From an uncultured Ruminiclostridium sp. (GTDB taxonomy: Bacteria; Bacillota; Clostridia; DSM-8532), in assembly GCA_964450305.1 (NCBI GenBank), contig CAYVFB010000008.1, positions 3,884 to 67,883 on the forward strand: a DNA stretch of 64,000 bases, read 5' to 3'. Under the pieces are notes generated by a model. It was not told the DNA's origin. It saw only the letters and a list, made by a program, of their open reading frames with translations, and did not search any database. A program made the position numbers and the translations under genes. Position 1 is the stretch's first letter. Each line of letters begins with the position of its first letter. Shown in pieces: positions 5,866-64,000 of this stretch.

Positions 5866-6113
5866 TTCCAATAAATAAAGGACTTTCTACCACTAAAAAC
5901 AGCGGATAAAGCTTTAGCATGGAGAAAAAACAATTATACACAAAGAGTGCGTCTGTGTTTGTGTTGCTTAAGCTTTCCCGCAGTGATACCGGTATGATAT
6001 AATGTGTAAGCAGTTATTAAGCGAATTCCAGTAAAGCTTTGGCTTATTCCACGAATATCCGGTTCAGGGCTGAAGCTGTAGCAAGTTTAAATGATAGAAC
6101 GGAAGGTTTTGAA

Positions 6114-8495
6114 ATGACTGAAAAGGTTCTCCGGGTTCTTGAATATGATAAAATCACCGAAAGGCTGGCTGAAAGGGCATCCAGCCAGCTGGGCAAGGAA
6201 CTGGCATCTGCTTTGGTGCCATTTACACGGCTTGAACAGGTTCAATCCGAACAGAAGGAAACCACGGATGCGGTTACCTGTATATTAAGGAAGGGTTCAC
6301 CGCCATTAGGGGGCATTCATGATATCCGATCACAAATACGCCGCGCGGAGGCCGGGGGAATACTGAACCCTGGGGAATTGCTGAAGATAGCCGATGTTCT
6401 GCGCGTATCAAGGCGATTGAAGGCCTATCTGACCGAAGATAAAATGGAGCTGGCCCAGACCAATGCTGTGGCCGTGCTGTGCGGCAGCCTTGGGACGAAC
6501 AGGACCCTGGAAGAAAGGCTGACACAATCAGTCGAGTCTGAGGATACCTTATCTGACTTTGCAAGCCCGCTACTGGCCTCTATCCGCAGAAGCATTCGTC
6601 GTGCGCAGGACTCCATCAAGGAAAAACTAAACCACATCATCCATTCGGCACAGAATAAAAAGTATATGCAGGATGCCGTGGTTACCCTCAGGGGGGATCG
6701 CTATGTCGTCCCTGTAAAGCAGGAGCACCGGAGCCAGATCCCCGGTCTGGTACATGATATGTCTTCCAGCGGGGCTACGCTGTTTGTTGAACCCATGGCA
6801 GTTGTTGAAGCGAACAACGAAATCCGTCAACTCAGAAGCAAGGAAGAGCAGGAAGTGGAGCGTATTCTGCTGGAACTGACCGCAGAGGTGGCAGAAATCG
6901 GTGGCATGCTGCAGGAAAACGCCGAACTGCTGGCAAGAATTGATTTTGCCTTTGCGAAAGCCCGGTTAAGCCTGGATATGAAAGCAACGGAACCAGTGCT
7001 CAACCGGGAGCGCCGCATTGTGATAAAAAGAGGCCGACATCCGCTGATTGACCCCAAATTGGTCGTTCCCATAGACATTGACCTGGGAGGCTCCTTTTCG
7101 ACGATGGTGATCACCGGCCCGAATACGGGCGGTAAAACTGTGACCCTGAAAACCACAGGCCTTTTTGTGCTGATGAGCCAGGCCGGGCTGCATATTCCAG
7201 CGGCTGACCAAAGTGAAATGGGCATATTCCGTCAGGTGTTCGCAGATATTGGCGACGAGCAGAGCATTGAACAAAGCCTCAGCACCTTTTCCTCCCATAT
7301 GACCAATATCGTTCAGATTCTGAAAAATGTAGACCAGGATTCACTGGTTCTGTTCGACGAGCTTGGTGCAGGGACCGACCCGACCGAGGGGGCAGCCCTT
7401 GCCACGGCCATCCTCGACACCCTGACCAAAAGGGAAATCAGGGCTATGGCAACCACCCATTACAGCGAATTAAAGCTGTATGCCATGTCCACAGAAGGGG
7501 TTCAGAATGCCTGCTGTGAGTTTAATGTGGAAACCCTTCGTCCCACATACCGGCTTCTGGTTGGAATACCGGGAAGAAGCAACGCCTTTGCCATCTCCAA
7601 AAGGCTGGGCCTGGGTGATGACATCATCGGTGAAGCCCGGAACTTTTTAAAGGGTGAGGACATCCAGTTCGAGGAGCTTCTTTCGGATATACAGAAAAAC
7701 CGTATGGCCGCTGAAAAGGAACGGGAGCAGGCCGAAAGGGATAAAAGAGAGATTGAGCGGCTGAAAGAGAGTTCTGAAGACGAAAAAAGGCGGACAGAAA
7801 ACGAAAAACAGGCCATTTTGAATAAAGCGAGGCAGGAAGCCAGAAGAGTACTGACCGAAGCAAAACGGGAAGCCGATGAAATCATGGAGCGGCTAAAGGA
7901 GCTTGAGAAAAACCACCAGCAAATGATCGAAAACCAGGAACTGATGGCCGTGAGGCAAAACATCCGCCAAAAGGTGGATGAGCTGGATCACCAGCTGGCG
8001 GAATCAGTGCTGCCGCGCAAAGGGTTTGCAAAGCCGCCCGAAAACCTGAAAGCCGGTGACACCGTCATGATTTTAAACCTGAACCAAAAAGGTATAGCAC
8101 TCGAAGCGCCCGACAAGGACGGTCAGGTGCAGATTCAGGCCGGCATTATGAAGATTAAGGTGCATGTTACCCAACTGCGTGCAGTGGATGAGCAGAAGGA
8201 ACTGACAGATACCATCCAAAGTGCGAGGGTAACCGGTGTTAAAACAGGCAGTGTGAAGCTCGAATTGGATATTCGGGGTCACAATATCGAGGAAGCCATG
8301 GTGAAGGTGGACAAGTACATCGATGAAGCCGTCATCGCAGGGCTTCATGAGGTGTCCATCATTCATGGCAAGGGAACCGGCGCACTGAGAAAGGGGATTC
8401 AGGATTTCCTGAAAACCCATGCCCATGTTGGGTCTTTCCGTATTGGCAAGTACGGAGAGGGTGAAACCGGTGTCACCATCGTTACCCTGAAATAG
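6114..8495 (+). CDS. mutS2: Endonuclease MutS2 (MutS domain V ATPase plus C-terminal Smr domain)
   Basis: Walker A ITGPNTGGKT, then DELGAGTDP and TTHY. Long charged coiled coil. Smr-like end (LDIRGHNIEEA...IIHGKGTGALR). ATG 6114 (MTEKVLRVLEYDKI) is the likely start. Confidence 0.9.
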   Translation: MTEKVLRVLEYDKITERLAERASSQLGKELASALVPFTRLEQVQSEQKETTDAVTCILRKGSPPLGGIHDIRSQIRRAEAGGILNPGELLKIADVLRVSRRLKAYLTEDKMELAQTNAVAVLCGSLGTNRTLEERLTQSVESEDTLSDFASPLLASIRRSIRRAQDSIKEKLNHIIHSAQNKKYMQDAVVTLRGDRYVVPVKQEHRSQIPGLVHDMSSSGATLFVEPMAVVEANNEIRQLRSKEEQEVERILLELTAEVAEIGGMLQENAELLARIDFAFAKARLSLDMKATEPVLNRERRIVIKRGRHPLIDPKLVVPIDIDLGGSFSTMVITGPNTGGKTVTLKTTGLFVLMSQAGLHIPAADQSEMGIFRQVFADIGDEQSIEQSLSTFSSHMTNIVQILKNVDQDSLVLFDELGAGTDPTEGAALATAILDTLTKREIRAMATTHYSELKLYAMSTEGVQNACCEFNVETLRPTYRLLVGIPGRSNAFAISKRLGLGDDIIGEARNFLKGEDIQFEELLSDIQKNRMAAEKEREQAERDKREIERLKESSEDEKRRTENEKQAILNKARQEARRVLTEAKREADEIMERLKELEKNHQQMIENQELMAVRQNIRQKVDELDHQLAESVLPRKGFAKPPENLKAGDTVMILNLNQKGIALEAPDKDGQVQIQAGIMKIKVHVTQLRAVDEQKELTDTIQSARVTGVKTGSVKLELDIRGHNIEEAMVKVDKYIDEAVIAGLHEVSIIHGKGTGALRKGIQDFLKTHAHVGSFRIGKYGEGETGVTIVTLK

Positions 8496-9705: not shown

Positions 9706-9771
9706 ATATTTACAAGAGGGACAGGTACCTTTGCAAATATTTGCAAAGGTACCTGTCCCTCTTGTAAATAT
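9706..9771. repeat. Perfect 66-bp palindrome (33-bp arms, no spacer) in the divergent intergenic region
   Basis: ATATTTACAAGAGGGACAGGTACCTTTGCAAAT followed by its exact reverse complement ATTTGCAAAGGTACCTGTCCCTCTTGTAAATAT. Verified base by base. Confidence 0.95.
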
Positions 9772-12324: not shown

Positions 12325-13629
12325 ATGGGTATTTGGAATACCGAGGTTGAATGCATGGAAAGGGAAAAGCTTTCCGAACTGCAGGCACAAAGACTATGTA
12401 ACACGGTCCAACGGGTTCACAGCAATGTTGCATTTTACAGACAGAAAATGAAGGGCTTGGGGGTCGAGCCCGGTGACATCAAAACGGTGGAAGACCTTCG
12501 AAAATTACCCTTTACCTACAAGCAGGATTTAAGAGATACCTACCCCTATGGCCTGTTTGCCGTTCCCATGGATAATGTGGTGCGTATTCATGCCTCGACA
12601 GGCACAACCGGGAAAAGAACAGTTGTTGGATATACCGCAAAGGATATCGACACATGGGCCGAGCTTATTGCGCGCGGCCTTACAGCTGCGGGTGCCGGTA
12701 AATCAGACTTTGTTCATGTAGCCTATGGGTATGGGCTTTTTACCGGCGGGCTGGGCGTACACTACGGCGCTGAAAAAATAGGTGCAGCCGTCATTCCCGT
12801 ATCGAGCGGGAATACCAAAAGGCAGATTGAGATCATGCAGGATTTTGGTTCCACAATCTTAACCAGCACACCATCCTATGCGCTGTATATTGCTGAAACC
12901 ATGCGCGAAATGGGGATAGATCCAAGAAAAGATCTGAAGCTGAAAGCCGGTGTGTTTGGCGCAGAGCCCTGGACAGAGGAAATGCGCAGAGAGATTGAAC
13001 AGCAGATGGGCATCAAGGCAATCGACATCTACGGCCTTTCTGAAATTATGGGACCCGGTGTTTCCGTTGAATGCGAACATCAGAACGGGATGCACATTCA
13101 GGAAGATCATTTCATTGCTGAAATTATTGATCCGGTCACCGAAGAGCCTCTGCCTATCGGATCAGAAGGGGAGCTGGTGTTTACCTGCATCACCAAAGAA
13201 GCGTTTCCGCTTATCCGTTACCGTACAAGAGATATTTGCCGCCTGAATGATGAAAAATGCGCCTGCGGCAGAACACAGATACGCATGAGCAAGGTGACAG
13301 GACGCAGCGACGACATGTTGATTATCCGTGGAGTAAACGTATTCCCGTCACAGATCGAAAGCGTTCTGCTGGAGCTTGGTATTGCCACACCGCATTATCA
13401 ACTGGTGGTGGATAGGGTAGGCACACTGGACAGTCTTGAGGTTCATGTGGAGATGACTCCAGAGATGTTCTCTGATGCCGTCAAGCAGGTTGAAAAGGCA
13501 GAACAGCGCATGCGAAACAATATTGAAAGCTTGCTGGGGTTATCCTGCAAGGTTCGTCTGATGGAACCGAAGAGCATTGAAAGAAGCGAAGGCAAGGCCA
13601 AGAGGGTTATTGACAAGCGGACAAAATAA
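12325..13629 (+). CDS. paaK: Phenylacetate-CoA ligase family protein (PaaK-type adenylate-forming enzyme)
   Basis: Reads [35 protein letters not shown] and [14 protein letters not shown]. Classic iorAB-paaK gene order. Confidence 0.85.
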
Positions 13630-13670
13630 CGAGGCTGACGGTTTGTTGATTTGGTCTTTTGAAGTTTGTA

Positions 13671-13700
13671 AAGGCAGACCTACACGGGTCTGCCTTTTAT
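13671..13700 (+). terminator. Probable terminator after paaK
   Basis: AAGGCAGACC-TACACG-GGTCTGCCTT hairpin followed by TTAT (short T tract). Confidence 0.55.
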
Positions 13701-13821
13701 ACGCCCGAAATGGAACGTTAATTTTATGTTTGTTATAGAAGTTATTGTTCACACCATCCTTTATTAAGTTCATTAGCCGTTACAGAGGTATGGGCTTTAT
13801 CTTGAACACAGCGATGTCATC

Positions 13822-13877
13822 CTGAGCGCAGTTAAGGATCTTATCAGGAGCAATGCGAGATCCTTAACTTCGTTCAG
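13822..13877. repeat. Hairpin-forming copy of a dispersed GTCATCCTGA..AAGGATCT element
   Basis: CTGAGCGCAGTTAAGGATCT, a 16-nt loop, then AGATCCTTAACTTCGTTCAG (18/20 pairing). The left arm matches a second copy at 49927-49952. Confidence 0.7.
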
Positions 13878-13947
13878 CCGAATGCGCCTTTTACCTACGA
13901 TTAGTAACCTATAGACGTATTATGTAAACAATATTGTGAAATTTCTC

Positions 13948-13976
13948 TTGACCAAACTGTGTTTGGACAGTATAAT
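13948..13976 (+). promoter_or_regulatory. Sigma-A promoter for the tRNA pair
   Basis: TTGACC, 17 nt, TATAAT, about 25 nt upstream of tRNA-Asn. Confidence 0.7.
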
Positions 13977-14001
13977 ATTATTTGCGCTAACTGTTAGACG
14001 T

Positions 14002-14077
14002 TCCTCAATAGCTCAGTCGGTAGAGCATGCGGCTGTTAACCGCAGGGTCGTTGGTTCGAGTCCAACTTGGGGAGCCA
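14002..14077 (+). tRNA. tRNA-Asn (GTT), encoded CCA
   Basis: Acceptor stem TCCTCAA/TTGGGGA, D-loop AGCTCAGTCGGTAGAGC, anticodon loop CTGTTAA (GTT at 14035-14037), T-arm GGTTCGAGTCC. Confidence 0.9.
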
Positions 14078-14080
14078 CTT

Positions 14081-14157
14081 GGGCCTTTAGCTCAGTTGGT
14101 TAGAGCAACCGGCTCATAACCGGTTGGTCCGGGGTTCGAGTCCCTGAAGGCCCACCA
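14081..14157 (+). tRNA. tRNA with a CAT anticodon; body resembles tRNA-Ile2 (lysidine) rather than elongator or initiator Met
   Basis: GGGCCTTTAGCTCAGTTGGTTAGAGC...CTCATAA (CAT at 14115-14117)...GGTTCGAGTCC...GGCCCACCA. Resemblance to B. subtilis and E. coli tRNA-Ile(CAU) is from memory. Confidence 0.85.
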
Positions 14158-14163
14158 AAAAAG

Positions 14164-14192
14164 GGATGGATAAATCATTATCCATCTTTTTT
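14164..14192 (+). terminator. Terminator after the tRNA pair
   Basis: GGATGGATAA-ATCA-TTATCCATCT hairpin followed by TTTTT. Confidence 0.7.
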
Positions 14193-14217
14193 CATGTTCA
14201 GGAACAAAGGAGACCAT

Positions 14218-14916
14218 ATGATCCATTTACAGGGGAGGCTTCTTCAAACGGCATCCATGCTGGAGGGCTGTGAAAGGCCTGCAGATATTGGCACAGACCA
14301 TGCTTATATCCCCATCTATCTGGTGCAATCCGGTAAATGCAGCAGAGTTATTGCCACTGATGTGAAAAAAGGACCTCTTAAAAAGGCGGCAATGAATATT
14401 GAAAAGCATCATCTGAAAGAACAGATAGAACTTCGCCTTGGGGACGGATTAGAGCCTGTAAAGCAAGGGGAATGCGATAGCTTTATTGTTGCCGGTATGG
14501 GGGGCGTGGTCATCACGGAAATCCTTGATAAGTCCCCTGATCTCGTGAAGCAGGCAAAAGCGCTTGTTCTGCAGCCGGTCTATACCGAAGCTTGTCTGCG
14601 GGAATATCTCTGTCGAAGCGGCTTTCGAACAGAATCCGAGGTTCTGGTTCTGGATGAGGGAAGAATTTATGTAATTCTCCGTGTTGCATATGATGGTATT
14701 TTACGGCAGGAAGAAGATCTGCATTACCATATAGGAAGGGTCTTATTTGAACGCAAAGACCCACTGCTGAAGCCCTATTTGGAAAGACGCATTCGCATTC
14801 AGTCAAAGATTGCTCATGGTATGGCAAAATCAGGCCTTCGGGATCCCAATGACATTAAAAAAGAACTGTGTCTTCTGGAAAGAATGAAAGAGGCCTATAT
14901 AACCGTAGAAACCTGA
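14218..14916 (+). CDS. trmK: tRNA (adenine22-N1)-methyltransferase TrmK (YqfN family)
   Basis: Reads DIGTDHAYIPIYL, VIATDVKKGPL, ELRLGDGL, IAGMGG. RBS AAAGGAG precedes ATG 14218. Confidence 0.8.
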   Translation: MIHLQGRLLQTASMLEGCERPADIGTDHAYIPIYLVQSGKCSRVIATDVKKGPLKKAAMNIEKHHLKEQIELRLGDGLEPVKQGECDSFIVAGMGGVVITEILDKSPDLVKQAKALVLQPVYTEACLREYLCRSGFRTESEVLVLDEGRIYVILRVAYDGILRQEEDLHYHIGRVLFERKDPLLKPYLERRIRIQSKIAHGMAKSGLRDPNDIKKELCLLERMKEAYITVET

Positions 14917-16248: not shown

Positions 16249-16638
16249 TTGAGTAAGCCAGATGATCGCGTGTGCAGGCCGAAAGGCCGCATACGAGGAA
16301 AGTCCGGGCTCCACAGGGCAGGGTGCCGGGTAACTCCCGGTCAAGGCGACTTGAAGGAAAGTGCAACAGAAATAGACCGCCTTAACGGGAAAACGCAGAG
16401 AAATTTTCCAATGGAAAATTTTAAAGTGTTTTCTCCTGAGGTAAGGGTGGAAAGGCGAGGTAAAAGCTCACCGGTTCCCTGGCGACAGGGAGCGCTCTGT
16501 AAACCCCACCTGGAGCAACACCGTGATGAGGACGCATTGGCTGCCCGCCAGTCCTCAGGGGTGGCTTGAGCCGCGCAGCAATGCCCGGCCTAGATAGATG
16601 ATCATCCAATACAGAACCCGGCTTACAGGCTTGCTCAA
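16249..16638 (+). ncRNA. rnpB: RNase P RNA, bacterial type A
   Basis: GAGGAAAGTCCGGGCTCCACAGGGCAGGGTGCCGGGTAAC from 16295 and ACAGAACCCGGCTTAC at 16611-16626. P1 pairing: TTGAGTAAGCC (16249-16259) with GGCTTGCTCAA (16628-16638). Confidence 0.9.
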
Positions 16639-16655
16639 TCATATTAATCAAGAAT

Positions 16656-52594: not shown

Positions 52595-54079
52595 CTATAT
52601 TAATTCGCTAACCCGGCGAATCACTCCGGGCAGGTCGATAAAGTCTTGTTCCACGGCTTTTTTCAATAGCGCAGCTGGAATGAAATGATCAAATTTTGGA
52701 ATAACGCTTTCACATTTAGTCTTAAAACGATGAACCTCCTGGTTTTTCAGGATATCATCCAGGGTAATGTTCGCAACCTTTATGTCCTGAAGGCATTCCA
52801 TCAGGGCTTCCAGGCTGTCCTCACGGGTTTTCACCAGGATGTAATAGGGTTCAAATCCACTTAAGTGAACAAGCTGCATTCGCTTTGGAATAAAATGCCT
52901 AAGCAGCAGCATCAGCGTGTTATAGTCTGCATTGCCCATCCACGGAAGTATGCAATAAAACCCCTTATCAATGCGAATCAAATTCCGGGCTGTAAGGTTC
53001 CTGTCCCTTGAAAGGATTCGTGCTTCTCTTAACCGGTTCAAAGCGCCCTGTTGCAGGAAGGGATACTCTTTCCTGTCTGTTAGCACCTGTTTCATCTTCT
53101 CCAGAATTCGTGTATGAATGACGGCCAGGTCGCCTTCATCTGAAATGACAATGGGGTTGATCATGGGCTTTACATACACCCTGAAATGCTCGGTATCGCA
53201 GGAGATGACCTCCCAGGTATGCCCGGCCAGTGTCAGCGGCTCACCTGTTGCAAACTCACGGTAAACCAGCCCCACCTGCTCGGAACCGTTTAATACCGTA
53301 TAGGTATCAAAGGTTTTAAAAACAGGGTAGAAGGTATAGCTGTGCACCAGTTTGCCACCCTCCATTCCCAGAATCAGCCCGCCATCTTCCAATTGCTGCA
53401 GGTGATCGAGCTTCAGCATTCGGCGGATCACCTGTTCAAAATCATCATGGGTTATATTCTGAAAGGGAGATAACGACAGAACCTGCTGTGCCAGTGCATT
53501 TATGGATAGCTCTCCCTTTCCCGCAAGCACACTGAGGGTTTGATGATACAGAATACCGAATGGTAATTTTGGTTTTTTGGGCGGTTCGATCCACCGATCT
53601 TCAAGGTAAAGCAGTATAACAGCGATGTTCTGAACCAGGTTCCAGGGGATTTTTCCCGGCAGGATAGCCTTTTCCTGTGGAATACCGTCATGGCATACGA
53701 AATAGATTTCTGCCGGCTGGCCTCTGCGACCGGAACGGCCCATGCGCTGCACAAAGCTGGCTACCGCCACAGGTGAATTGACCTGAATCACCCTGTCCAG
53801 TCCAGCGATGTCCAGGCCCATTTCAAGGCTTGAGGTGCCTATCACCACAACCGGCCTGTCTTTCTTCATGGCTGCTTCTGCAGCCTCACGCAGAGAAGTC
53901 GAGATATTTCCATGATGCACATGAAAATTATCTTCAGCCTGGTTTTCTGAGGCGATGGCGCGAAGCTGCACCGCTGTGGTTTCACTGCCCGCAACGGAGT
54001 TACAGAAGACAATGCATTGTTTGTGTAAACTTTTATTGTAAATATATTGCCAAATCCCATTCATCTCTTGACTCCACAC
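52595..54079 (-). pseudogene. N-terminally truncated Lhr-like helicase paralogue (RecA2 lobe and C-terminal domains only)
   Basis: Aligns by eye from residue 1 to about residue 275 onward of the 756-aa helicase at 57656..59926 (roughly 35-40% identity). Keeps motif VI MGRSGRRG but has no Walker A or DExH. An in-frame TAG at 54094-54092 closes the frame upstream. It could still be translated from ATG 54064 (GGAG 7 nt upstream). Confidence 0.65.
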
Positions 54080-54096
54080 AGAACATGTGTTCTAAT
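54068..54096 (+). promoter_or_regulatory. Candidate sigma-A promoter of the TerB/ATPase/helicase operon, with an embedded GAAC-N4-GTTC (LexA/Cheo-like) inverted repeat
   Basis: TTGACT (54068-54073), 17 nt, TCTAAT (54091-54096). AGAACATGTGTTCT at 54080-54093 spans the spacer and the -10. Confidence 0.45.
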
Positions 54097-54309
54097 ATTA
54101 GTAGTGGATGGTGTTGGGGGAAACCTGCGAGGCCATTGCCCGTTTCTTCCATTGTATGTTTTCGGTCTGCCTTTTACAAGAGGGATGGAAGGTGAATCAC
54201 CAAGGGTAATAAGGTCGTTGCTGTTCATACAGCAGAAAAGATATCGGGTGGCTGCGGATGGTTATATGCAAGTTGCCTCTGAACAGTAACAAGGGATAAG
54301 GGTATCATT

Positions 54310-56340
54310 ATGGACTGGAAGGATGACGAAGCATATTCCTACAGCTTTGAAGAAGACTGGGAGGGTCAGGGCACGGCTATTCCGCCCCGGCCAGATTGTC
54401 TGGGCAGCTATGAACCGGAACCGGAACCCTGCTGCGAGGAAGAATCGCAATACCAAAGTTTCAGGCCATTCGCAGTGGGGGGTACTGATGGGTATAACAG
54501 GCGGGGGGTCGCTAACGACCATAGCAGGCAATCCGCAATTGGGGTTGTGGATGGTAAAAACAGGAAACCTCTGACAGGGGTTGCACCCTCGCGGATGAAG
54601 CAGCTGAAAACGCTATATCAATCTGTCGTACGCCTGAACCAGGAAAGGAATGAAAATTCCTTTGTCAGGGAAGCCCAAAAACACGCCAATGATATGGGTG
54701 AAAAGGCTCGCCATGTGCCTTTCCGGTCTTATTGGCCCACCTACGAAGCCATGTCTCAAAGGCAGAAGGAATGGTATTTTTATCTCCGTTCACAGCTTCG
54801 GCAGGGGAAATACCCGAAAACCGATCTGTCCTATTTGTTTGTCTATATTTATGAAATCATCAACCAGGTGGGGGTCAACGACGCCACCGATGGTTTTTTA
54901 CAATTGTGTGGTTTATGGAGTGCTTATCGCAGCACCTATTCCATCCTCGATAAGTATTTGGTGTTGTGGGTGCAGGACTATATCCTGATCTATGCCAATG
55001 GGGACTTTACAACCATGATGACAAGAGTTCCCGATAAATCCCTGTTAACCCTGTTTCCCGATTCTCTGGCGGGCTGTTTCATGGAAAACCCCACAGCGGG
55101 CTTCACCCTCGATTTTATCAGCCGTTTCTCTGACTACCGCTTTCACACCGGACAATTGGCCAAAAGCAACCAGGGGGGGTATTTCCTCTCACTGCTGCCG
55201 AAGGTGTTCCAGGAAGTGAATCAAAGCCTGTTTCAAGAAAAAGGCAAAGGTATTTTTGGAATATACAGGCCTGTGCACAGCAACGGCAAACGGCGGATTG
55301 CCTTTCAAAACGCCATATACAGCGGCCTGGTCACTTCGGTGTGCCAGGATGAAATACCCTATTCCGACTATCCGCCGCTGCGGCTTTTTTTTACGTCGGT
55401 AGTCAAGGAAACCGAGAACCGCCTGCGCGAGCAGGCACAAATCAGGGGAAGGCTTCGGGGCATCGAGCTGGAGCCAAAGGTTCTTTCGGTGATACAGTCG
55501 TTTGTCATCAGCCAGCTTTGTAAAGTGGTTCCCGACGATGAAAAGAAGAAGATTCAGGTCGATCGGGATCGAATTGTCCAGCTGCTTGAAGAATCCAATC
55601 TCATCCGCCAAAGGCTGCTTGAGGGTATCGATGAAATCACAAGAGGGGTCCGTACGAACGATGCTCCTTTTTCTCAGGATGGGAATACTTCCTGCGAGAA
55701 TGATGAATGTTATGAAGATGGTGAGCCTGTCGACATTTTGGAAACACAGCCGGGTGGGTGTACCTCTTCAGGCGAGCAGGTAATTACAGTTGCTGATTGT
55801 CCTTCTGTTAAAACAACGCATACCTGCTTAAACAACCCTATGCAACTTGCTTTTAACCTTGAAGAGCCTGTTATAGCTCATAGGGAAGGTATTGTAGAAA
55901 CCAGAAAAGGCAAGGTGGAAGCCAAAGCTTCTATGGCGGAAGCCAAAGATTTTATTGTGGAAACCAAAGATTATATGGCGGAAGCCAAAGAAAGCATCAT
56001 GGAAACCAAAGGCACCTGGGCTGTGGAGCAAAGTTCAGCATGTACTGCGCTTCAAAGCAGCGGACAAACTCCTGAATTTGAGCTTTCAGGGGCTGGCTTA
56101 CTGAAGCAAAATCTTACGCAGAACCAACAAAGCCTCATGGCGTTTATCCTGCAAAACGGTGGTGAAGTGGGCACGGGTTTGATCAGCCACGCTTTTCCTC
56201 AACTGTTTCTCGAACTGGAAATGGATGAAATCAATCAACAGGCTATGGAAGCACTGGGGGACATCATTCTTGCCACAGAAGGCGCGCAGTGGCTGCTATA
56301 TGACGAATACAGGGCACAATTGGAAGGGGTTTTTAAATGA
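54310..56340 (+). CDS. sngA: TerB-N / TerB-C domain protein (SngA-like)
   Basis: TerB-N-like block HVPFRSYWPTYEAMSQRQKEWYFYLRSQLRQGKYPKTDLSYLFVYIYEIIN. TerB-C-like end (...LELEMDEINQQAMEALGDIILATEG...). Acidic N-terminal extension. Stop overlaps the next start (ATGA). Confidence 0.75.
   Translation: MDWKDDEAYSYSFEEDWEGQGTAIPPRPDCLGSYEPEPEPCCEEESQYQSFRPFAVGGTDGYNRRGVANDHSRQSAIGVVDGKNRKPLTGVAPSRMKQLKTLYQSVVRLNQERNENSFVREAQKHANDMGEKARHVPFRSYWPTYEAMSQRQKEWYFYLRSQLRQGKYPKTDLSYLFVYIYEIINQVGVNDATDGFLQLCGLWSAYRSTYSILDKYLVLWVQDYILIYANGDFTTMMTRVPDKSLLTLFPDSLAGCFMENPTAGFTLDFISRFSDYRFHTGQLAKSNQGGYFLSLLPKVFQEVNQSLFQEKGKGIFGIYRPVHSNGKRRIAFQNAIYSGLVTSVCQDEIPYSDYPPLRLFFTSVVKETENRLREQAQIRGRLRGIELEPKVLSVIQSFVISQLCKVVPDDEKKKIQVDRDRIVQLLEESNLIRQRLLEGIDEITRGVRTNDAPFSQDGNTSCENDECYEDGEPVDILETQPGGCTSSGEQVITVADCPSVKTTHTCLNNPMQLAFNLEEPVIAHREGIVETRKGKVEAKASMAEAKDFIVETKDYMAEAKESIMETKGTWAVEQSSACTALQSSGQTPEFELSGAGLLKQNLTQNQQSLMAFILQNGGEVGTGLISHAFPQLFLELEMDEINQQAMEALGDIILATEGAQWLLYDEYRAQLEGVFK
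55894..56019 (+). repeat. 21-bp x6 in-frame tandem repeat (heptads VETRKGK/VEAKASM/AEAKDFI/VETKDYM/AEAKESI/METKGTW)
   Basis: Units start at 55894, 55915, 55936, 55957, 55978 and 55999. Core: G(T/C)GGAA(A/G)CCAAAG. Confidence 0.9.
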
Positions 56341-57659
56341 ATACAATGAAGGTTCCCAAGCGGGTTTCCACAGCGTTGCTGAACTCACTCAGCGCGGGGG
56401 TTACACCAAGAATTGGGCTGGAATACATGGCGGTGGGAAGAAAACGTGAAATAGAGACGCTATTGGAGGATCTGGCCAATATCCGGGAGGGCGGCTCCAT
56501 TTTCCGCATCATCGTGGGGCGATATGGCAGCGGGAAAAGCTTTCTGCTGCAGATCATCCGCAATTATGCCATGGACAGGGATTATGTCGTTATCGACGCC
56601 GACCTGTCCCCGGAAAGGAAGCTCACCGGCAACCGTGGCAGCGGCCTGGCTACCTACCGCGAGCTGCTGCAGAACATGGCCACCAGGGTCAGGCCAGACG
56701 GAGGGGCATTGAATGCAATCCTTGAGCGTTGGATCGCCGCTGTTCAAATGCAATTGATGAAGGACGAGGGTCTTTCATTGAATGATCCCCTGCTAGCCGA
56801 ACGCATGGAGCTAAGCATTATGCAAGCTATCCACCGCATGGACGATCGCGTTCACGGATATGATTTTGCCAGGGTACTCAGTGCTTTTTGGCAAGGGCAT
56901 CGCACCGGCAACGACGAAATGAAGAACGCCGCGCTGAAATGGCTCAGGGGGGAGTATCAAACCAAAACCGAAGCCAATACCGAGCTTGGCGTTCGGGTGA
57001 TCATCGACGACGATACCTGGTTTGACTATATCAAGCTGTTTTCCGATTTTGTAAAACAGTTGGGTTATGCAGGCTTGATCATGCTGCTGGATGAAGGCGT
57101 GAATCTTTACAAAATATCCAATACACAGTCCCGCAACAACAACTACGAAAAGCTGCTGAACATGTTTAATGACGCAATGCAGGGGAAGGTGCAGGGACTG
57201 GGAGTATATCTGTGCGGCACACCACAGTTCGTCGAGGATAACCGACGCGGCCTGTTCAGCTATGAGGCGCTTCGGACAAGACTGGCCGGCAGCCGATTTG
57301 CCAAAGAGCTGAAGGATATGCAAGGACCGTTAATCTATCTGGACAAACTAACCTACGAAGAGCTTTTTGTATTGCTGCATAAAATCCTTGAAATTCATAT
57401 TGTCCATTATGGCTGGGAATGCGGGGTTTCCGAGGATGACCTGCTTTTCTTCCTGCAGCAGGCTGTAGATCGCATTGGTGCCGACGAGTGGCTGACCCCC
57501 CGTGAAATCGTGCGAGATTTCATTTCTGTTCTGAACCTGGTGCGGCAAAACCCGGAGCAAACGTTTAAAAGGCTTGTCACCGGAGACCTGTTTAAAACAA
57601 CCCATCCGGCAGATGATAACGATATTGAGGAAAATGATGCGGCGGAGTTTAGCTTATGA
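56337..57659 (+). CDS. sngB: DUF2791/BrxD-like P-loop ATPase (SngB-like)
   Basis: Walker A GRYGSGKSFLLQ (aa 61-72) and Walker B-like LIMLLDE. The N-terminal pattern RIGLEYMAVGRKREIETLL is recalled from DUF2791 proteins. 4-nt overlaps at both ends. Confidence 0.7.
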   Translation: MNTMKVPKRVSTALLNSLSAGVTPRIGLEYMAVGRKREIETLLEDLANIREGGSIFRIIVGRYGSGKSFLLQIIRNYAMDRDYVVIDADLSPERKLTGNRGSGLATYRELLQNMATRVRPDGGALNAILERWIAAVQMQLMKDEGLSLNDPLLAERMELSIMQAIHRMDDRVHGYDFARVLSAFWQGHRTGNDEMKNAALKWLRGEYQTKTEANTELGVRVIIDDDTWFDYIKLFSDFVKQLGYAGLIMLLDEGVNLYKISNTQSRNNNYEKLLNMFNDAMQGKVQGLGVYLCGTPQFVEDNRRGLFSYEALRTRLAGSRFAKELKDMQGPLIYLDKLTYEELFVLLHKILEIHIVHYGWECGVSEDDLLFFLQQAVDRIGADEWLTPREIVRDFISVLNLVRQNPEQTFKRLVTGDLFKTTHPADDNDIEENDAAEFSL

Positions 57660-59926
57660 GCGATAATGTTTTTTACCGATTGGCACCCTTCATCCAGGAA
57701 TTCATTTACCGCAACAATTGGACCGAGCTTCGCGCCATTCAGGTGGAGGCCTGTCGTGTCATCTTCGAAACCGATGCCCACCTGTTGCTGTCCTCCGGTA
57801 CGGCTTCGGGGAAGACGGAAGCGGCGTTCCTTCCCGTTTTAACCCTTTTAACCGAGGACCCGCCGGCATCGGTTGGCGTTTTGTACATTGCCCCGATAAA
57901 GGCATTGATCAACGACCAGTTTTTGAGGCTGAACGACCTTTTGAAGGAAGCGGATATCCCGGTGTGGCACTGGCATGGGGATGTATCCGGTTCCCACAAG
58001 CAAAAAATGATCAAGAACCCCTCGGGGGTACTGCAAATCACGCCGGAATCTCTTGAAAGCCTGCTGATCAATAAAAACCGGGATTTGGTGAGAATCTTCG
58101 GGGATCTTCGTTTTGTTGTGATCGACGAAGTCCACGCATTCATGGGAACGGATCGCGGTATTCAGGTTTTGTGCCAGCTGGAAAGGCTGCAGCGGTATAT
58201 CCGCACCAAACCCAGACGGATTGGGTTGTCAGCAACCCTTGGGGATTATACCCTTGCTGAAAAGTGGCTGGCTTCAGGCACCGATAAAGCCGTTCATACT
58301 CCACAGGTCGGATCAGGTTCCCAGAAGGTGCGTATCGCGGTGGAGCATTTCTATGAAGAGCCTGATGACGGAAATAAAAAAAAAGCCCTTTTAGCACCGG
58401 GTAATTCTGTTGATTTGAATTTCCATAGCAATCAGTGGGAGCCTAGCCATCCGCAGCCTTTCTGGAACTACCTTTATGAAAAAACTTTAAACCGAAAATG
58501 CATTATTTTCTCAAACCTGCGGGAACACGCAGAGTCCTCAATCGCGACCTTAAGGCAAATTGCAGAGCTAAGAAGCACGCCTGATATTTATCATGTGCAC
58601 CATGGCAGTATTTCAGCATCGCTGCGCGAAACGGCAGAAACAACGATGAAAGAAATGAACGGGCCTGTGGTGATCGGTGCGACTGTGTCACTGGAGCTGG
58701 GTATCGATATCGGAAGGCTGGAGAGAATCATTCAGCTGGAGGCTCCTGCTTCGGTTTCGTCTTTCCTGCAGCGGCTTGGAAGATCAGGACGCAGGGGAAA
58801 CCCTTCTGAAATGTGGTTTTTATGCCGTGAGCAAAAGCCTTCGGGAGTGCCATTGCTGCCTTACCAGATCCCCTGGAGGCTTTTGCAGTCCGCAGCCATT
58901 ATTCAGTTGTATTTTGAAGAACGCTGGGTGGAACCGGCTGTCAGCCGGAAATATCCTCTGGGTATGCTTTATCACCAAACCATGAGCATCATTCTTTCCA
59001 CGGGAGAGGTTACCATGGCCAGCCTTGAAAAACGTATTCTTGGTATGGCCTGTTTTTCCCAGATTACCCCGCAGGATTTCCGGATGCTGATCGATCACCT
59101 GGTTAAATTGGAACATTTGCAGTTCACCGAAGAGCAGGGGCTTATCATCGGTCTGGAGGGTGAGAAGATCACATCAGGCTTCCGGTTTTTGGCCGTGTTC
59201 CCCGAGGATGACGAATACACGGTCAATTCGGAGACGGGGCAAATCGGGAAAATTGAAATCCCGCCCCCTGTGGGGGAAAGGATTACGATTGCAGGGCGGA
59301 ACTGGGAAGTGGTTGATTTTGACATGAAGCAAAAAACGGTGTTTGTGAAAAGAGTGAACGGGAAAATCAACACCTTTTGGGTGGGCGGCTCGATGCATAT
59401 TCATAATCGGGTGGTTGCAAACATTCGCAAGGTCTTGTCCGAAAACTGTGACTACCCATGGCTGAAGCCGGGGGCAGCCAGCAGGCTGGCAGAAACAAGG
59501 GCTCTTGCCAGGAAAACCGGGCTGCTTGAAAAGCAGGTATTCAGCCTGGGAGGGAATACCGTTATGCTGTTACCGTGGCTGGGCTCAGTAGATTATCATG
59601 TGCTCAGGGCGTTCATCCAGCATTTTCTGAAGGAGCGTTTTGACCTGAAAGGTCTGGGCGGACAGGCACCCTATTTTATCCTCGCAAGGCTTGGAACAGG
59701 CACCATAGAGGAATTCACAGCAGCTTTAGGCGAATTACTGAGCTCAAAGCCAGATCTGTTGACCTGTTTCAGTGAAGATGAGCTGGATGAACTCATCTAC
59801 AGTATTGAATACAAAACACCAAAGTTTAACGGATTCATTCCAAAGCCACTTCTTCACAAGGGTTATGTAACGGATTACGTGCATCTGGAAAATATCACTT
59901 TACAGTGGGGACAGGTTCCTGTGTAA
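57656..59926 (+). CDS. sngC: Lhr-like DEAD/DEAH-box helicase (SngC / BrxHI-like)
   Basis: Motif I SSGTASGKTEA, motif II VVIDEVHAF, motif VI QRLGRSGRRG. About 330-aa C-terminal extension. Confidence 0.85.
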   Translation: MSDNVFYRLAPFIQEFIYRNNWTELRAIQVEACRVIFETDAHLLLSSGTASGKTEAAFLPVLTLLTEDPPASVGVLYIAPIKALINDQFLRLNDLLKEADIPVWHWHGDVSGSHKQKMIKNPSGVLQITPESLESLLINKNRDLVRIFGDLRFVVIDEVHAFMGTDRGIQVLCQLERLQRYIRTKPRRIGLSATLGDYTLAEKWLASGTDKAVHTPQVGSGSQKVRIAVEHFYEEPDDGNKKKALLAPGNSVDLNFHSNQWEPSHPQPFWNYLYEKTLNRKCIIFSNLREHAESSIATLRQIAELRSTPDIYHVHHGSISASLRETAETTMKEMNGPVVIGATVSLELGIDIGRLERIIQLEAPASVSSFLQRLGRSGRRGNPSEMWFLCREQKPSGVPLLPYQIPWRLLQSAAIIQLYFEERWVEPAVSRKYPLGMLYHQTMSIILSTGEVTMASLEKRILGMACFSQITPQDFRMLIDHLVKLEHLQFTEEQGLIIGLEGEKITSGFRFLAVFPEDDEYTVNSETGQIGKIEIPPPVGERITIAGRNWEVVDFDMKQKTVFVKRVNGKINTFWVGGSMHIHNRVVANIRKVLSENCDYPWLKPGAASRLAETRALARKTGLLEKQVFSLGGNTVMLLPWLGSVDYHVLRAFIQHFLKERFDLKGLGGQAPYFILARLGTGTIEEFTAALGELLSSKPDLLTCFSEDELDELIYSIEYKTPKFNGFIPKPLLHKGYVTDYVHLENITLQWGQVPV

Positions 59927-60036
59927 AAAAGTCAAAATATCCAGGCCCGCCGCTGGGTTAATTATGCCAAGGTACCTGAGCCCCGCCCTCTGGTTCAATG
60001 AAGCCAAGATACCTGGGCCTCACCCTCTGGCTAATG
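59927..60036. repeat. Three degenerate 36-37-bp tandem repeats between the convergent helicase and GH1 genes
   Basis: Units are 59927-59963, 59964-60000 and 60001-60036. Core: GCCAAG(G/A)TACCTG(A/G)GCC.C.CCCTCTGG. The last unit overlaps the GH1 stop codon. Confidence 0.8.
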
Positions 60037-61320
60037 ACTCAAATATTTGTGGATCATTTCCCTGGTAACGCCTTTTTCACGGCAAACCTCCGCATAGAAG
60101 GAACCACTGCGTCGCAATGTGCGCTGCTGGGTTTCAAAGTCCACCTTGATCAGACCAAACGGGGCAGATTCTCCTTCATCCCATTCAAAGTCATCCATCA
60201 GCGTCCAATGGTAATATCTCTGCACAGGAATGCCTTCCTTACAAAGCTTGAAAACCTCATGCAGGTGATCATAAATAAATTGGCAGCGAAAGGCATCTTT
60301 TTTATCGCAGGTCCCATTTTCTGTTATCCAAATAGGAGCATTCAGCTTCTCATAATATCTTTTGCAAAGCTGTGAAAGCCCCTCAGGATAGATTTCCCAA
60401 CCCAGGTCATTTTGAGGGTTTTCCTTGAAGGTCGTGATGCGAAAACCAATGCATTGAACGGCGGAGCGAGTATAATAATTAATTCCAATAAAATCGTAGT
60501 ATTTTCCCTTTCCCAGGGGCGCACCCTTTCCAATGGGAAAGCGAAGCCTTCCATCCGACATGGACATTACCAGGGCTTCCTGCAACCAATAATCCATGAT
60601 CTTTGCGGCCAGTTTATCAAAAGGGTTCTTCGGCGAAAGGGGATCAAAAACCCGAAGAGCATGGGCTATTCCAACCTTTGTTTCACCGTTGAACAAGCTT
60701 TGCTGCCGTACGCGGTGTATGGTCTGGTAAGCCTTGATGTGGCATAGGGTCATGTTTTTAAACACCTGCATGACAAGCTTTTTATTCTTTTTCCCTGGAG
60801 GCCACTCACCAAAGAGGTATCCCAAAACCCCGTAAACGTTCGGCTCGTTGATTGTGATGTACTCGCAGACAAGATCGCCCAGGTTTTCAACAACGAAGGT
60901 GACGAATCGTTCAAAATAGTCAACTACCTTTTCGTTTTCAAATTCTCCTTCTTCAACTAGCCAAAGTGGGTGAGAAAAGTGATGCAGTGTTACGAGGGGG
61001 CGAATTCCATTGTTGATCAGCTCTTGAATGATATCACGATAGTGAAAAATCGCCTCCTGGTCAAATTCACCCTTGCGAGGTTCAATCCGGCTCCAATCCA
61101 CACTCATCCGATATACCTGGTGATTGAGTGTCTTCATCCATCGAATATCCTGGGTATACCGGTTCCAGTGGTCGTTGGCACGGATGCATGTGGAACCATC
61201 CTTGATGTGACCATCCACACACCATTTGTACCAGTTGCTTTGTGACATTCCACCCTCAATTTGTGTAGCAGCGGTTGCAGAGCCCATTAAAAAGTCGGAC
61301 GACAGTTTAAATGCTTTCAT
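60031..61320 (-). CDS. Glycoside hydrolase family 1 (beta-glucosidase / 6-phospho-beta-glucosidase-like)
   Basis: Reads FLMGSATAATQIEGG, TLHHFSHP, ITINEPNV, WITENG. RBS AAGGAGG. Confidence 0.9.
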   Translation of the reverse strand: MKAFKLSSDFLMGSATAATQIEGGMSQSNWYKWCVDGHIKDGSTCIRANDHWNRYTQDIRWMKTLNHQVYRMSVDWSRIEPRKGEFDQEAIFHYRDIIQELINNGIRPLVTLHHFSHPLWLVEEGEFENEKVVDYFERFVTFVVENLGDLVCEYITINEPNVYGVLGYLFGEWPPGKKNKKLVMQVFKNMTLCHIKAYQTIHRVRQQSLFNGETKVGIAHALRVFDPLSPKNPFDKLAAKIMDYWLQEALVMSMSDGRLRFPIGKGAPLGKGKYYDFIGINYYTRSAVQCIGFRITTFKENPQNDLGWEIYPEGLSQLCKRYYEKLNAPIWITENGTCDKKDAFRCQFIYDHLHEVFKLCKEGIPVQRYYHWTLMDDFEWDEGESAPFGLIKVDFETQQRTLRRSGSFYAEVCREKGVTREMIHKYLSH

Positions 61321-62537: not shown

Positions 62538-64000
62538 TTATTTCAGCTCAATCCCCAGTGCTTCAATCAAGTAGATGGCATTGCGCGTCTTCGACACACC
62601 CGGCCTCAGTTTATAATCAAACTTGATTTGCCCATTGTCATAATGCTCTTGAAAATGGTAGTTTGCGATTTGCCCGTTTGTTTCCTTTTCCAGAATCTCC
62701 AGCTCCAAATCATGGGTGGATACCATGCCGATGCTGTTCTTTCCGGCCAGCTTTGAGATCAAAACCTTTGCAGCGTGATGGCGATCATAGGAGTTGGTTC
62801 CCTTAAAAATTTCGTCTAAAAGGAAAAAGATGCGTCCTTTTGTTTTAACGGCCTCCACAATCATCTTTATCCTCAGCAGCTCGGCATAAAAGCTGGATAT
62901 GCTTTTCTCCAGGTTGTCGGATATCCGCATACAGGTGCATACATTCATGACCGAGCAGGAAAATGAATGCGCGCATACAGGGGCACCGGAGTAAGCCAGA
63001 ACGAGGTTTAACCCGATAGTTCTTAAAAACGTGCTTTTTCCCGACATGTTTGAACCGGTTACAAGGATTACCTTTCTGTCGTTGCCCAGCTCGAAGTCAT
63101 TTGAGATGCGTCCTTTGGTGATTAATGGATGTCCGGCCTGAACGGCTTTAACCAGCAGGGTTTCGGAATCAATAACATCGGGCACGGCCCAATCCGGATT
63201 GTCATGCATCAGGTTTGCCAGGCTGGAAAACGCTTCAAAGGCCGCGATGCCTTCAAACCACTGAAGCAGATTTTTTCCGCACTCCTGCTTCCATTTTTCC
63301 AGGGCAATTTCACATTGATAATCCCACAATGTAAGCACATCAAAAACAAAGTAGAACATATTGTTCCGATTTGAAATGTTACTGCAAATATGCGAAAGCT
63401 TATCCAACTGCTTTGACGGTGAGCTGTTATTCACATACAAGCTTTTTTTATTTTCCTGTAGCAAGCAGGAGCGGAATTCAGTTTTTTCAATTAACTTGAG
63501 CATGTTACTGTAAGGCTCAAGACGGTACTTCAATGCATAGGCGGTATTGAGCACATCTGAACGATGCTTGATTTTCCACCGCAACAGAAGAATCTGGAAG
63601 ATTATCAGCAAAACGGGAATGAGCCTGGGAATCAGCTGAAAATACCCCGGTATGATTGTAAGGGCGGTAATGACAGGAAGTAATTTCATAAAAAGTTGTA
63701 TACGCTTCTCCAACAACTTCTCATTGACGTTCTTTCCCCAATCCAGAATTTTATTCATTTCATGAGAGCTTTCCTTCAGGGTCATCCCTTCTGCCTGCAG
63801 CCTTTGGCGGAAGAAAAGCCCCTTGGCCAGTTCGTTAACTGCTTCCTGTTTTCTCTTGATCTCATCTGTGCTTTCTGGATGAGAGCACAACAAGTCCTTC
63901 AGTTTTTTTCTTCCCAGGGGGGTTTGGCAGGAATTCACCAGTTGAAAAACAGAACCCTGACCCAGTATATCCAAATCCTCGGCATAAAAGTGATCAATTT
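62538..64000 (-). CDS. MutS-related protein (domain V ATPase, no Smr) with internal TM helices; 5' end lies beyond the window
   Basis: Walker A VTGSNMSGKSTFLRTIG, then LLDEIFKGTN and STHDLEL. Two hydrophobic helices (LLPVITALTIIPGYFQLI, LIPVLLIIFQILLL). The frame stays open to the window edge. Confidence 0.8.
   Translation of the reverse strand, partial: IDHFYAEDLDILGQGSVFQLVNSCQTPLGRKKLKDLLCSHPESTDEIKRKQEAVNELAKGLFFRQRLQAEGMTLKESSHEMNKILDWGKNVNEKLLEKRIQLFMKLLPVITALTIIPGYFQLIPRLIPVLLIIFQILLLRWKIKHRSDVLNTAYALKYRLEPYSNMLKLIEKTEFRSCLLQENKKSLYVNNSSPSKQLDKLSHICSNISNRNNMFYFVFDVLTLWDYQCEIALEKWKQECGKNLLQWFEGIAAFEAFSSLANLMHDNPDWAVPDVIDSETLLVKAVQAGHPLITKGRISNDFELGNDRKVILVTGSNMSGKSTFLRTIGLNLVLAYSGAPVCAHSFSCSVMNVCTCMRISDNLEKSISSFYAELLRIKMIVEAVKTKGRIFFLLDEIFKGTNSYDRHHAAKVLISKLAGKNSIGMVSTHDLELEILEKETNGQIANYHFQEHYDNGQIKFDYKLRPGVSKTRNAIYLIEALGIELK

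Follow-up and report, generated by a model that had tools for sequence, protein, structure and literature searches.

A chromosomal Shango locus in an uncultured Ruminiclostridium, with a conserved and putatively functional SngC-type gene that lacks the motor lobe

The DNA considered here is a stretch of 64,000 nucleotides (nt) from an uncultured Ruminiclostridium sp. (assembly GCA_964450305.1, contig CAYVFB010000008.1, positions 3,884 to 67,883), referred to below as the window. It carries three same-strand genes, sngA, sngB and sngC, that correspond to the anti-phage system Shango and, transcribed divergently from sngA, a fourth gene for an SngC-type protein without the RecA1 motor domain, termed here the half-helicase. 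It is probable that the locus represents a chromosomal Shango system with a functional, divergent fourth gene, which would operate in the manner proposed below and under LexA-type control. Three things go beyond known Shango: a motor-less paralogue that is conserved, a LexA-type operator, and relatives with two helicases. The four genes are as follows.

52595..54064, minus strand: half-helicase, 489 amino acids (aa); RecA2, winged helix, domain-4-like barrel and C-terminal domain, without RecA1/DEAD
54310..56340, plus strand: sngA, 676 aa, from the open reading frame (ORF) listing; TerB_N, helical core, disordered acidic linker and TerB_C-like C-terminus
56337..57659, plus strand: sngB, 440 aa; BrxD-like (DUF2791) P-loop ATPase with Walker A K67 and Walker B D252/E253
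57656..59926, plus strand: sngC, 756 aa; Lhr-like superfamily 2 helicase with motor motifs I-VI all intact

As judged by protein profiles, positions 54310-59926 are a genuine Shango, an already described system, and the identification by itself is routine. The PADLOC SngA profile matches gene 1 at 1.2e-60 (residues 92-674), and the SngB and SngC profiles match genes 2 and 3 over their full length (2.4e-182 and 8.9e-232). BrxD (9.6e-47) and BrxHI (3.1e-120) are far second. The likeness to this pair pointed out in the initial annotation is real. The Shango call made there is correct because the Sng profiles score far above the BREX (bacteriophage exclusion) profiles and no PglX or PglZ was found among the window ORFs scanned. 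Of the Pfam families that it had proposed to search, TerB_N, BrxC_BrxD, DEAD and Helicase_C are matched: TerB_N in SngA (2.3e-30, aa 93-251), BrxC_BrxD in SngB (9.8e-157), and DEAD and Helicase_C in SngC, where WH_Lhr is weak (18.2 bits against a gathering score of 27). The second TerB domain assigned to SngA, TerB_C, reaches 24.9 bits, slightly below its gathering score of 26.3. The catalytic motifs first quoted are present in SngB (GSGKS with K67, LLDE at residue 250) and in SngC (GTASGKT at 48, DEVH at 157, QRLGRSGRRG at 372). Both gene junctions read as 4-nt ATGA overlaps, as stated at the outset, and the three adjacent, co-oriented genes are translationally coupled. By sequence, the solved structures closest to SngC are Lhr (5v9x, 7lhl) and MrfA (6znp), and SngB has no sequence match in the Protein Data Bank (PDB). 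The NCBIfam model BREX_BrxD gives 161.7 bits on SngB, under its cut-off of 350, and none of the NCBIfam DNA-repair helicase equivalogs comes near its own cut-off.

The published description of Shango, a TerB-like protein with an ATPase and a helicase, is exactly the triad seen (Millman et al., 2022; Johnson et al., 2023, PMC10250203). Shango is widespread. Phage resistance has been validated only for the Escherichia coli and Pseudomonas aeruginosa systems, where liquid cultures were strongly protected and the effect on plates was modest. SngC falls together with BrxHI, DruE and DpdJ in a helicase phylogeny from the literature. A search of the recent literature for the Shango mechanism or for additional components found nothing.

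The half-helicase stands out as the unusual constituent of the locus. Its ORF spans 52595-54079; the likely start is ATG 54064, and the alternative GTG at 54079 would give 494 aa. The PADLOC SngC profile matches it at 1.4e-114, at model positions 249-715 only; Pfam finds Helicase_C, and the protein is 38% identical to residues 269-747 of the resident SngC. An AlphaFold2 model is confident (predicted local distance difference test 85.8, predicted template-modelling score 0.83), and the solved structure that it resembles most is the Lhr core 5v9x (E 4e-13, template-modelling (TM) score 0.61), with MrfA next. No RecA1 remnant was found upstream, and no split N-terminal half was found elsewhere in the window.

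Is this gene decaying, as the initial annotation supposed? It is intact, at 489-496 aa and divergent beside sngA, in eight lineages (the window; L029/L045; L011/L012/L014; L013; L038/L039; L046; L040/L041; L037), with no internal stop in any copy. These copies span down to 76% aa identity and to saturated synonymous divergence (dS). Across six lineages, helicase motifs IV, V and VI show no variation. The ratio of nonsynonymous to synonymous divergence (dN/dS; Nei-Gojobori, pairs with dS from 0.5 to saturation) is 0.04-0.08 for the half-helicase, against 0.04-0.08 for SngB, 0.06-0.13 for SngC and 0.15-0.20 for SngA. Among 5.8 billion proteins searched, every close homologue (77-95% identity) is of this length, and the next matches are full-length helicases at no more than 44% identity; the clade forms a single 50% cluster among 1.84 billion representatives. 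The half-helicase is read as a working gene because of its intact ORF, low dN/dS, invariant motifs, confident model and conserved ribosome binding site and promoter. By these criteria it is predicted to be a conserved, functional, motor-less SngC-type gene, and the notion of decay can be set aside.

Three other candidates were considered and rejected. Switching between sngC and the half-helicase by inversion or a shufflon finds no substrate, as the longest inverted repeat has 26 nt at 81% complementarity and the two proteins are 38% identical. Two proteins that resembled independent motor-less paralogues are a frameshifted full-length gene in an unrelated context (P0141) and a gene cut by a contig end (P0254).

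The intergenic region between the half-helicase and sngA holds several signals.

54068..54096, plus strand: candidate sngA promoter TTGACT-17-TCTAAT; hexamers invariant in 7 loci; not called by the promoter scan
54072..54075, minus strand: Shine-Dalgarno sequence GGAG, 7 nt upstream of the half-helicase ATG 54064; invariant in 7 loci
54080..54093, no strand: perfect palindrome AGAACATGTGTTCT, AGAAC-N4-GTTCT, matching the LexA-type operator GAAC-N4-GTTC
54151..54179, minus strand: sigma-70-like promoter TTGTAA-17-TACAAT toward the half-helicase, from the promoter scan; both hexamers kept in 6/7 aligned loci; a consensus match only

Prominent among these is the palindrome, whose core GAACATGTGTTC (54081-54092) has no other perfect GAAC-N4-GTTC beside it in the window. 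GAAC-N4-GTT(C/T) is the LexA operator consensus of Bacillus subtilis and clostridia (PMC4234289). The possible SOS box proposed earlier is real. All eight half-helicase lineages have identical arms, AGAAC and GTTCT (7 intergenic regions aligned). The N4 spacer varies (ATGT, ATAT, GTAT), as do the 4-5 nt between palindrome and ribosome binding site, and the remaining spacer is unalignable in the most distant locus. The box is convincing because the arms stay invariant across loci while spacer and flanks vary. Every locus that extends over the 5' end of the half-helicase has a perfect GAAC-N4-GTTC, and only two others are found in about 600 kb of other loci. None was found beside the Shango genes of two-helicase relatives.

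The palindrome is upstream of the half-helicase, at 18-31 nt from its start codon, and the distance to sngA is 125-217 nt, depending on the lineage. In the candidate sngA promoter, which is weak and only putative, it falls in the spacer and overlaps the -10 element. The consensus match and its conservation suggest that the palindrome most likely ties the half-helicase, and possibly sngABC, to the LexA/DNA-damage response.

As a separate observation, one of the two outside sites, at L053 1626, lies in another Shango locus, apparently in or near the 5' part of sngA.

Relatives of the locus offer a hint of how the half-helicase came about. Most relatives whose SngB is 60-68% identical carry two full-length SngC-type helicases. 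The order is sngA-sngB-sngC-sngC2 in six loci (L048, L049, L050, L051, L055, L061). Two others have sngB followed by two helicases with sngA uncaptured (L044 starts inside sngB, and L062 has no SngA match), and in L043 the two helicases flank sngA, one upstream and the other downstream; a single helicase is present in L056 and L057. In the two-helicase loci checked, all but L050, the motor motifs are intact in both copies; in L050 the second helicase falls in two BLAST pieces. In a distance-based tree the first-position helicases form one clade (66% support) and the second-position helicases another (77%). The half-helicases form a long branch of their own with 100% support, whose attachment relative to the first-position and second-position clades has 52% support. 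The sole hint of placement is one residue, motif VI reading VQR rather than LQR, which the half-helicase has in common with the second-position clade.

Since most of these relatives have two full helicases, the present clade appears to be a Shango subtype with two helicases, one of them without its motor. The half-helicase may fill the role of the second helicase after losing the motor lobe; because of the 52% attachment, descent from the second helicase is suggested and no more.

The two-helicase Shango loci of Firmicutes and metagenomes (L043, L044, L048-L051, L055, L061, L062) are also of interest in themselves, as their two paralogue clades lie outside current three-gene definitions. In L043 a MerR/GyrI-like regulator gene (13487-14488) is directly downstream of sngC. 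The Shango of P. aeruginosa PA14 was cloned together with a flanking MerR gene (PMC10250203).

How is the locus inherited? The block is always found with an LPG-synthase-type gene to one side and Bax1-I/MutS-like genes to the other, and the cargo that flanks it is variable (GFO/IDH/MocA oxidoreductase, PilZ with FapA, Mem_trans, GH1). Between the window and L011, dS is 0.46-0.58 for the Shango genes and 0.36-0.60 for flanking chromosomal genes; for L038 the values are 0.94-1.44 and 1.2-1.9. The four-gene block is inherited vertically within the clade, because its dS matches the dS of the flanking genes when the same two lineages are compared. Further out, an empty site is found in a Clostridiaceae metagenome-assembled genome (MAG), L016, at 12741-14133, where Bax1-I and LPG synthase are 1.4 kb apart with one unrelated 328-aa ORF and no Shango genes; its MutS-like protein is 67% identical to that of the window. 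The block is thus stable within the clade, and beyond it, in L016, the equivalent site is empty. The description of the locus as accessory applies at the level of the family alone; within the clade, the block has co-diverged with the chromosome. No integrase, transposase, mobile-element gene or other defence gene was seen in the scanned window ORFs, in agreement with the initial annotation, which had noted no mobility genes nearby. The remainder of the window is ordinary chromosome (ThrRS, MurG, MutS2-Smr, ABC transporters, RNase P RNA, tRNAs).

What might a helicase without a motor do in such a system? As in other Shango systems, SngC would translocate on or unwind phage nucleic acid, with SngB as a putative ATP-driven loader or switch and SngA as a possible sensor or scaffold with disordered acidic linkers. 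The many Firmicute loci with two SngC-type helicases suggest that the helicase works as a pair, which in most relatives would consist of two active motors. In this clade the second subunit would have become a motor-dead partner, unable to hydrolyse ATP, that could still bind nucleic acid and the complex. We infer the formation of this complex and the role of the motor-less subunit, both of which are to be taken as provisional. The control region, if wired to LexA, would make the half-helicase, and possibly sngABC, DNA-damage linked.

A more specific proposal is that the half-helicase serves Shango as a dedicated regulatory subunit under SOS control. It would have taken the place of the second helicase in an ancestral complex with two motors, and would either restrain SngC on damaged host DNA or license SngC upon phage-induced damage. 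This is speculative and rather unlikely. If true, it would be the first defence helicase governed by a truncated paralogue of itself, and Shango helicases would act as hetero-oligomers.

The two-helicase Firmicute loci and the clade with a motor-less partner provide concrete handles on the unsolved mechanism of Shango. The half-helicase can be looked upon as a natural separation-of-function variant, in which the nucleic-acid-binding and C-terminal domains are kept and the ATPase lobe is lost. The conserved LexA-type site suggests a testable tie between Shango and the DNA-damage response. Three-gene definitions, as in PADLOC and DefenseFinder, would call such loci plain Shango and miss the extra component.

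Several considerations weigh against a four-gene, LexA-controlled Shango. The anti-phage activity of the clostridial copy at 54310-59926 is presumed from its likeness to validated systems, and as of 2025 no mechanism had been established for Shango. Vertically stable and outside any defence island, the locus is less typical of defence genes. A putative interaction of the half-helicase with SngABC is proposed from linkage and shared ancestry, and the long branch with its 52% attachment leaves the ancestry of this protein within the family loosely anchored. With respect to control, the single GAAC-N4-GTTC in the window compares with 0.72 expected and is not significant by itself. The palindrome is about 50-65 nt downstream of the best promoter-like site of the half-helicase, and the candidate sngA promoter has a poor -10 element without A at position 2. 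LexA is a presumed binder, and the transcript that it would control is likewise presumptive.

The main rival explanation is that the locus does not serve immunity and represents an SOS-regulated DNA-processing or repair module, where an Lhr/MrfA-like helicase, an ATPase and a TerB-type partner carry out a stable chromosomal function. The co-divergence of the block with flanking chromosomal genes would fit such a role, as would the conserved LexA-type operator, the lack of mobile-element or other defence genes among those seen in the window, and the fact that the nearest helicases of solved structure, Lhr and MrfA, act in DNA repair. The helicase here appears to have the RecA1-RecA2-winged helix-domain 4 architecture of the Lhr core and MrfA (PDB 5v9x, 6znp), with WH_Lhr under its gathering score, and the half-helicase model aligns to the Lhr core. 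Yet sequence identity to these proteins is only 12-17%, the C-terminal domain differs, the half-helicase is entirely without RecA1, and the context is of defence type. Models from experimentally validated Shango fit all three proteins far better than do repair families, whose NCBIfam equivalogs fall far under their cut-offs; moreover, L016 has no such block at this site and the SngA linkers are hypervariable. A repair module is accordingly judged improbable.

BREX must also be considered. BrxD and BrxHI form an accessory pair of BREX types 2 and 6, and the ATPase and helicase here are homologous to this pair; both are the second-best PADLOC matches, and the Pfam family of gene 2 is named BrxC_BrxD. 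Against a BREX fragment or subtype stand the far higher scores of the Sng models, a BrxD score less than half the NCBIfam cut-off, and the presence of a TerB_N/TerB_C protein instead of PglX, PglZ or BrxC-type genes, none of which was found among the larger window ORFs scanned. It is scarcely credible that the locus is BREX.

Two further explanations accept an ordinary Shango and concern the half-helicase. It could be a non-functional relic of an older system beside a three-gene Shango, as its loss of the entire RecA1 motor domain, its 38% identity to the resident SngC and its NCBI label, hypothetical protein, might imply. The intact ORF in eight lineages at such divergence, the low dN/dS, the conserved ribosome binding site, promoter and operator, the invariant motifs and the confident structure model make a relic very improbable. 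Could it then be functional and a mere neighbour, unrelated to Shango and with its own regulation? Its divergent transcription and its own promoter-like site and ribosome binding site are in keeping with this. On the other hand, the protein belongs to the SngC family, is found only beside sngA (8/8 lineages) while the genes on its other side vary among lineages, and its cluster, the sole one of its kind among the 1.84 billion representatives, is this clade. An unrelated neighbour is thus a most doubtful explanation.

The preferred interpretation, Shango with a fourth gene, thus combines old and new elements. Like known Shango, the locus has the same three families by PADLOC in a same-strand operon of a TerB-type protein, a BrxD-like ATPase and an Lhr-like helicase. 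Unlike known Shango, it has an extra conserved motor-less SngC paralogue divergent from sngA and a LexA-type palindrome in the shared control region, it resides in an uncultured clostridial host with no defence island and no mobile genes nearby, and its relatives mostly have two full helicases and not one. RecC and AddB are dead helicase folds that work beside a live motor, with both degenerate RecA lobes kept. They offer an analogy only, that of a helicase-derived subunit without motor activity kept under selection beside an active helicase. There is no homology; in the half-helicase RecA1 is deleted and the RecA2 motifs are intact, and its partnership with SngC is putative.

SngA contains variable regions with repeats; these and its domains are listed here.

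54412..54428, plus strand: GAACCG repeat, 2.8 copies (Tandem Repeats Finder, TRF); encodes (EP)n in the disordered SngA N-terminal region
55916..56011, plus strand: 21-nt (7-aa) tandem array; TRF period 21, 3.6 copies, 83% matches, or period 42, 2.3 copies; in the hypervariable, predicted disordered SngA linker
SngA domains: TerB_N aa 93-251; helical core to about aa 445; disordered acidic linker aa 446-590; TerB_C-like aa 583-672

The initial annotation gave SngA an acidic N-terminal extension of roughly 130 aa. The region before TerB_N is about 92 aa (isoelectric point 4.4), is predicted to be disordered and starts with a motif common to the family (MDWKDDEAYSYSFEEDWEGQGTAIPPRPDCL; G21, I24 and P25 invariant in a 13-sequence alignment), followed by a variable linker; it is not an added module. 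The heptad array described there is real, whereas its standing as an extra feature is not upheld. The segment aa 446-590, between the helical core and the C-terminal domain, is hypervariable in length among homologues, and an 84%-identical homologue (P0002) is short by about 95 aa in the linker region of the array. In the nearest relative (L029/L045) the array is one unit shorter than in the window, and the EP repeat of the nearest relative is one unit longer. The AlphaFold2 model of SngA, built from a 79-sequence alignment, is folded at aa 93-445 and 590-676 and disordered at aa 1-90 and 446-590. The N-terminus and the 7-residue array are thus parts of length-polymorphic, slippage-prone acidic linkers with predicted disorder. 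SngA has no significant match among solved structures by sequence (PDB) or by fold; the fold search gives a best E of 0.5, with weak winged-helix-like matches only, presumably to the folded C-terminal domain. An identical SngA protein is recorded in NCBI and in Logan contigs. A protein of the same cluster, at least 90% identical, is annotated as coming from a Ruminiclostridium sp. MAG; a Thermoclostridium sp. MAG is the source of the 84%-identical homologue.

Some minor features of the surroundings may be added. The Bax1-I gene, which in the window lies between GH1 and the MutS-like gene, is missing in L029 (1-2600) and L045, an instance of small-scale gene turnover. There are two MutS-family genes in the window: 6039-8495 encodes MutS2 with Smr and SH3 domains, and 62538-64000 a MutS_III/MutS_V-only protein that runs off the end (601 aa, seen at full length in L008). 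Rfam finds no RNA elements in the Shango locus, and elsewhere in the window RNase P RNA (class A, 295.6 bits) and two tRNA genes (16250-16641; 14002-14154). Finally, the 104-nt spacer between the convergent sngC and GH1 stops carries a 37-nt direct repeat at 59959-60037 (2.2 copies, 79% matches). A related 17-mer, GCAAAGGTACCTGTCCC, forms an inverted pair at 9718-9734 and 9743-9759, with 4 matches against 0.38 expected. The 37-nt repeat may be a small repeated extragenic element or a terminator.

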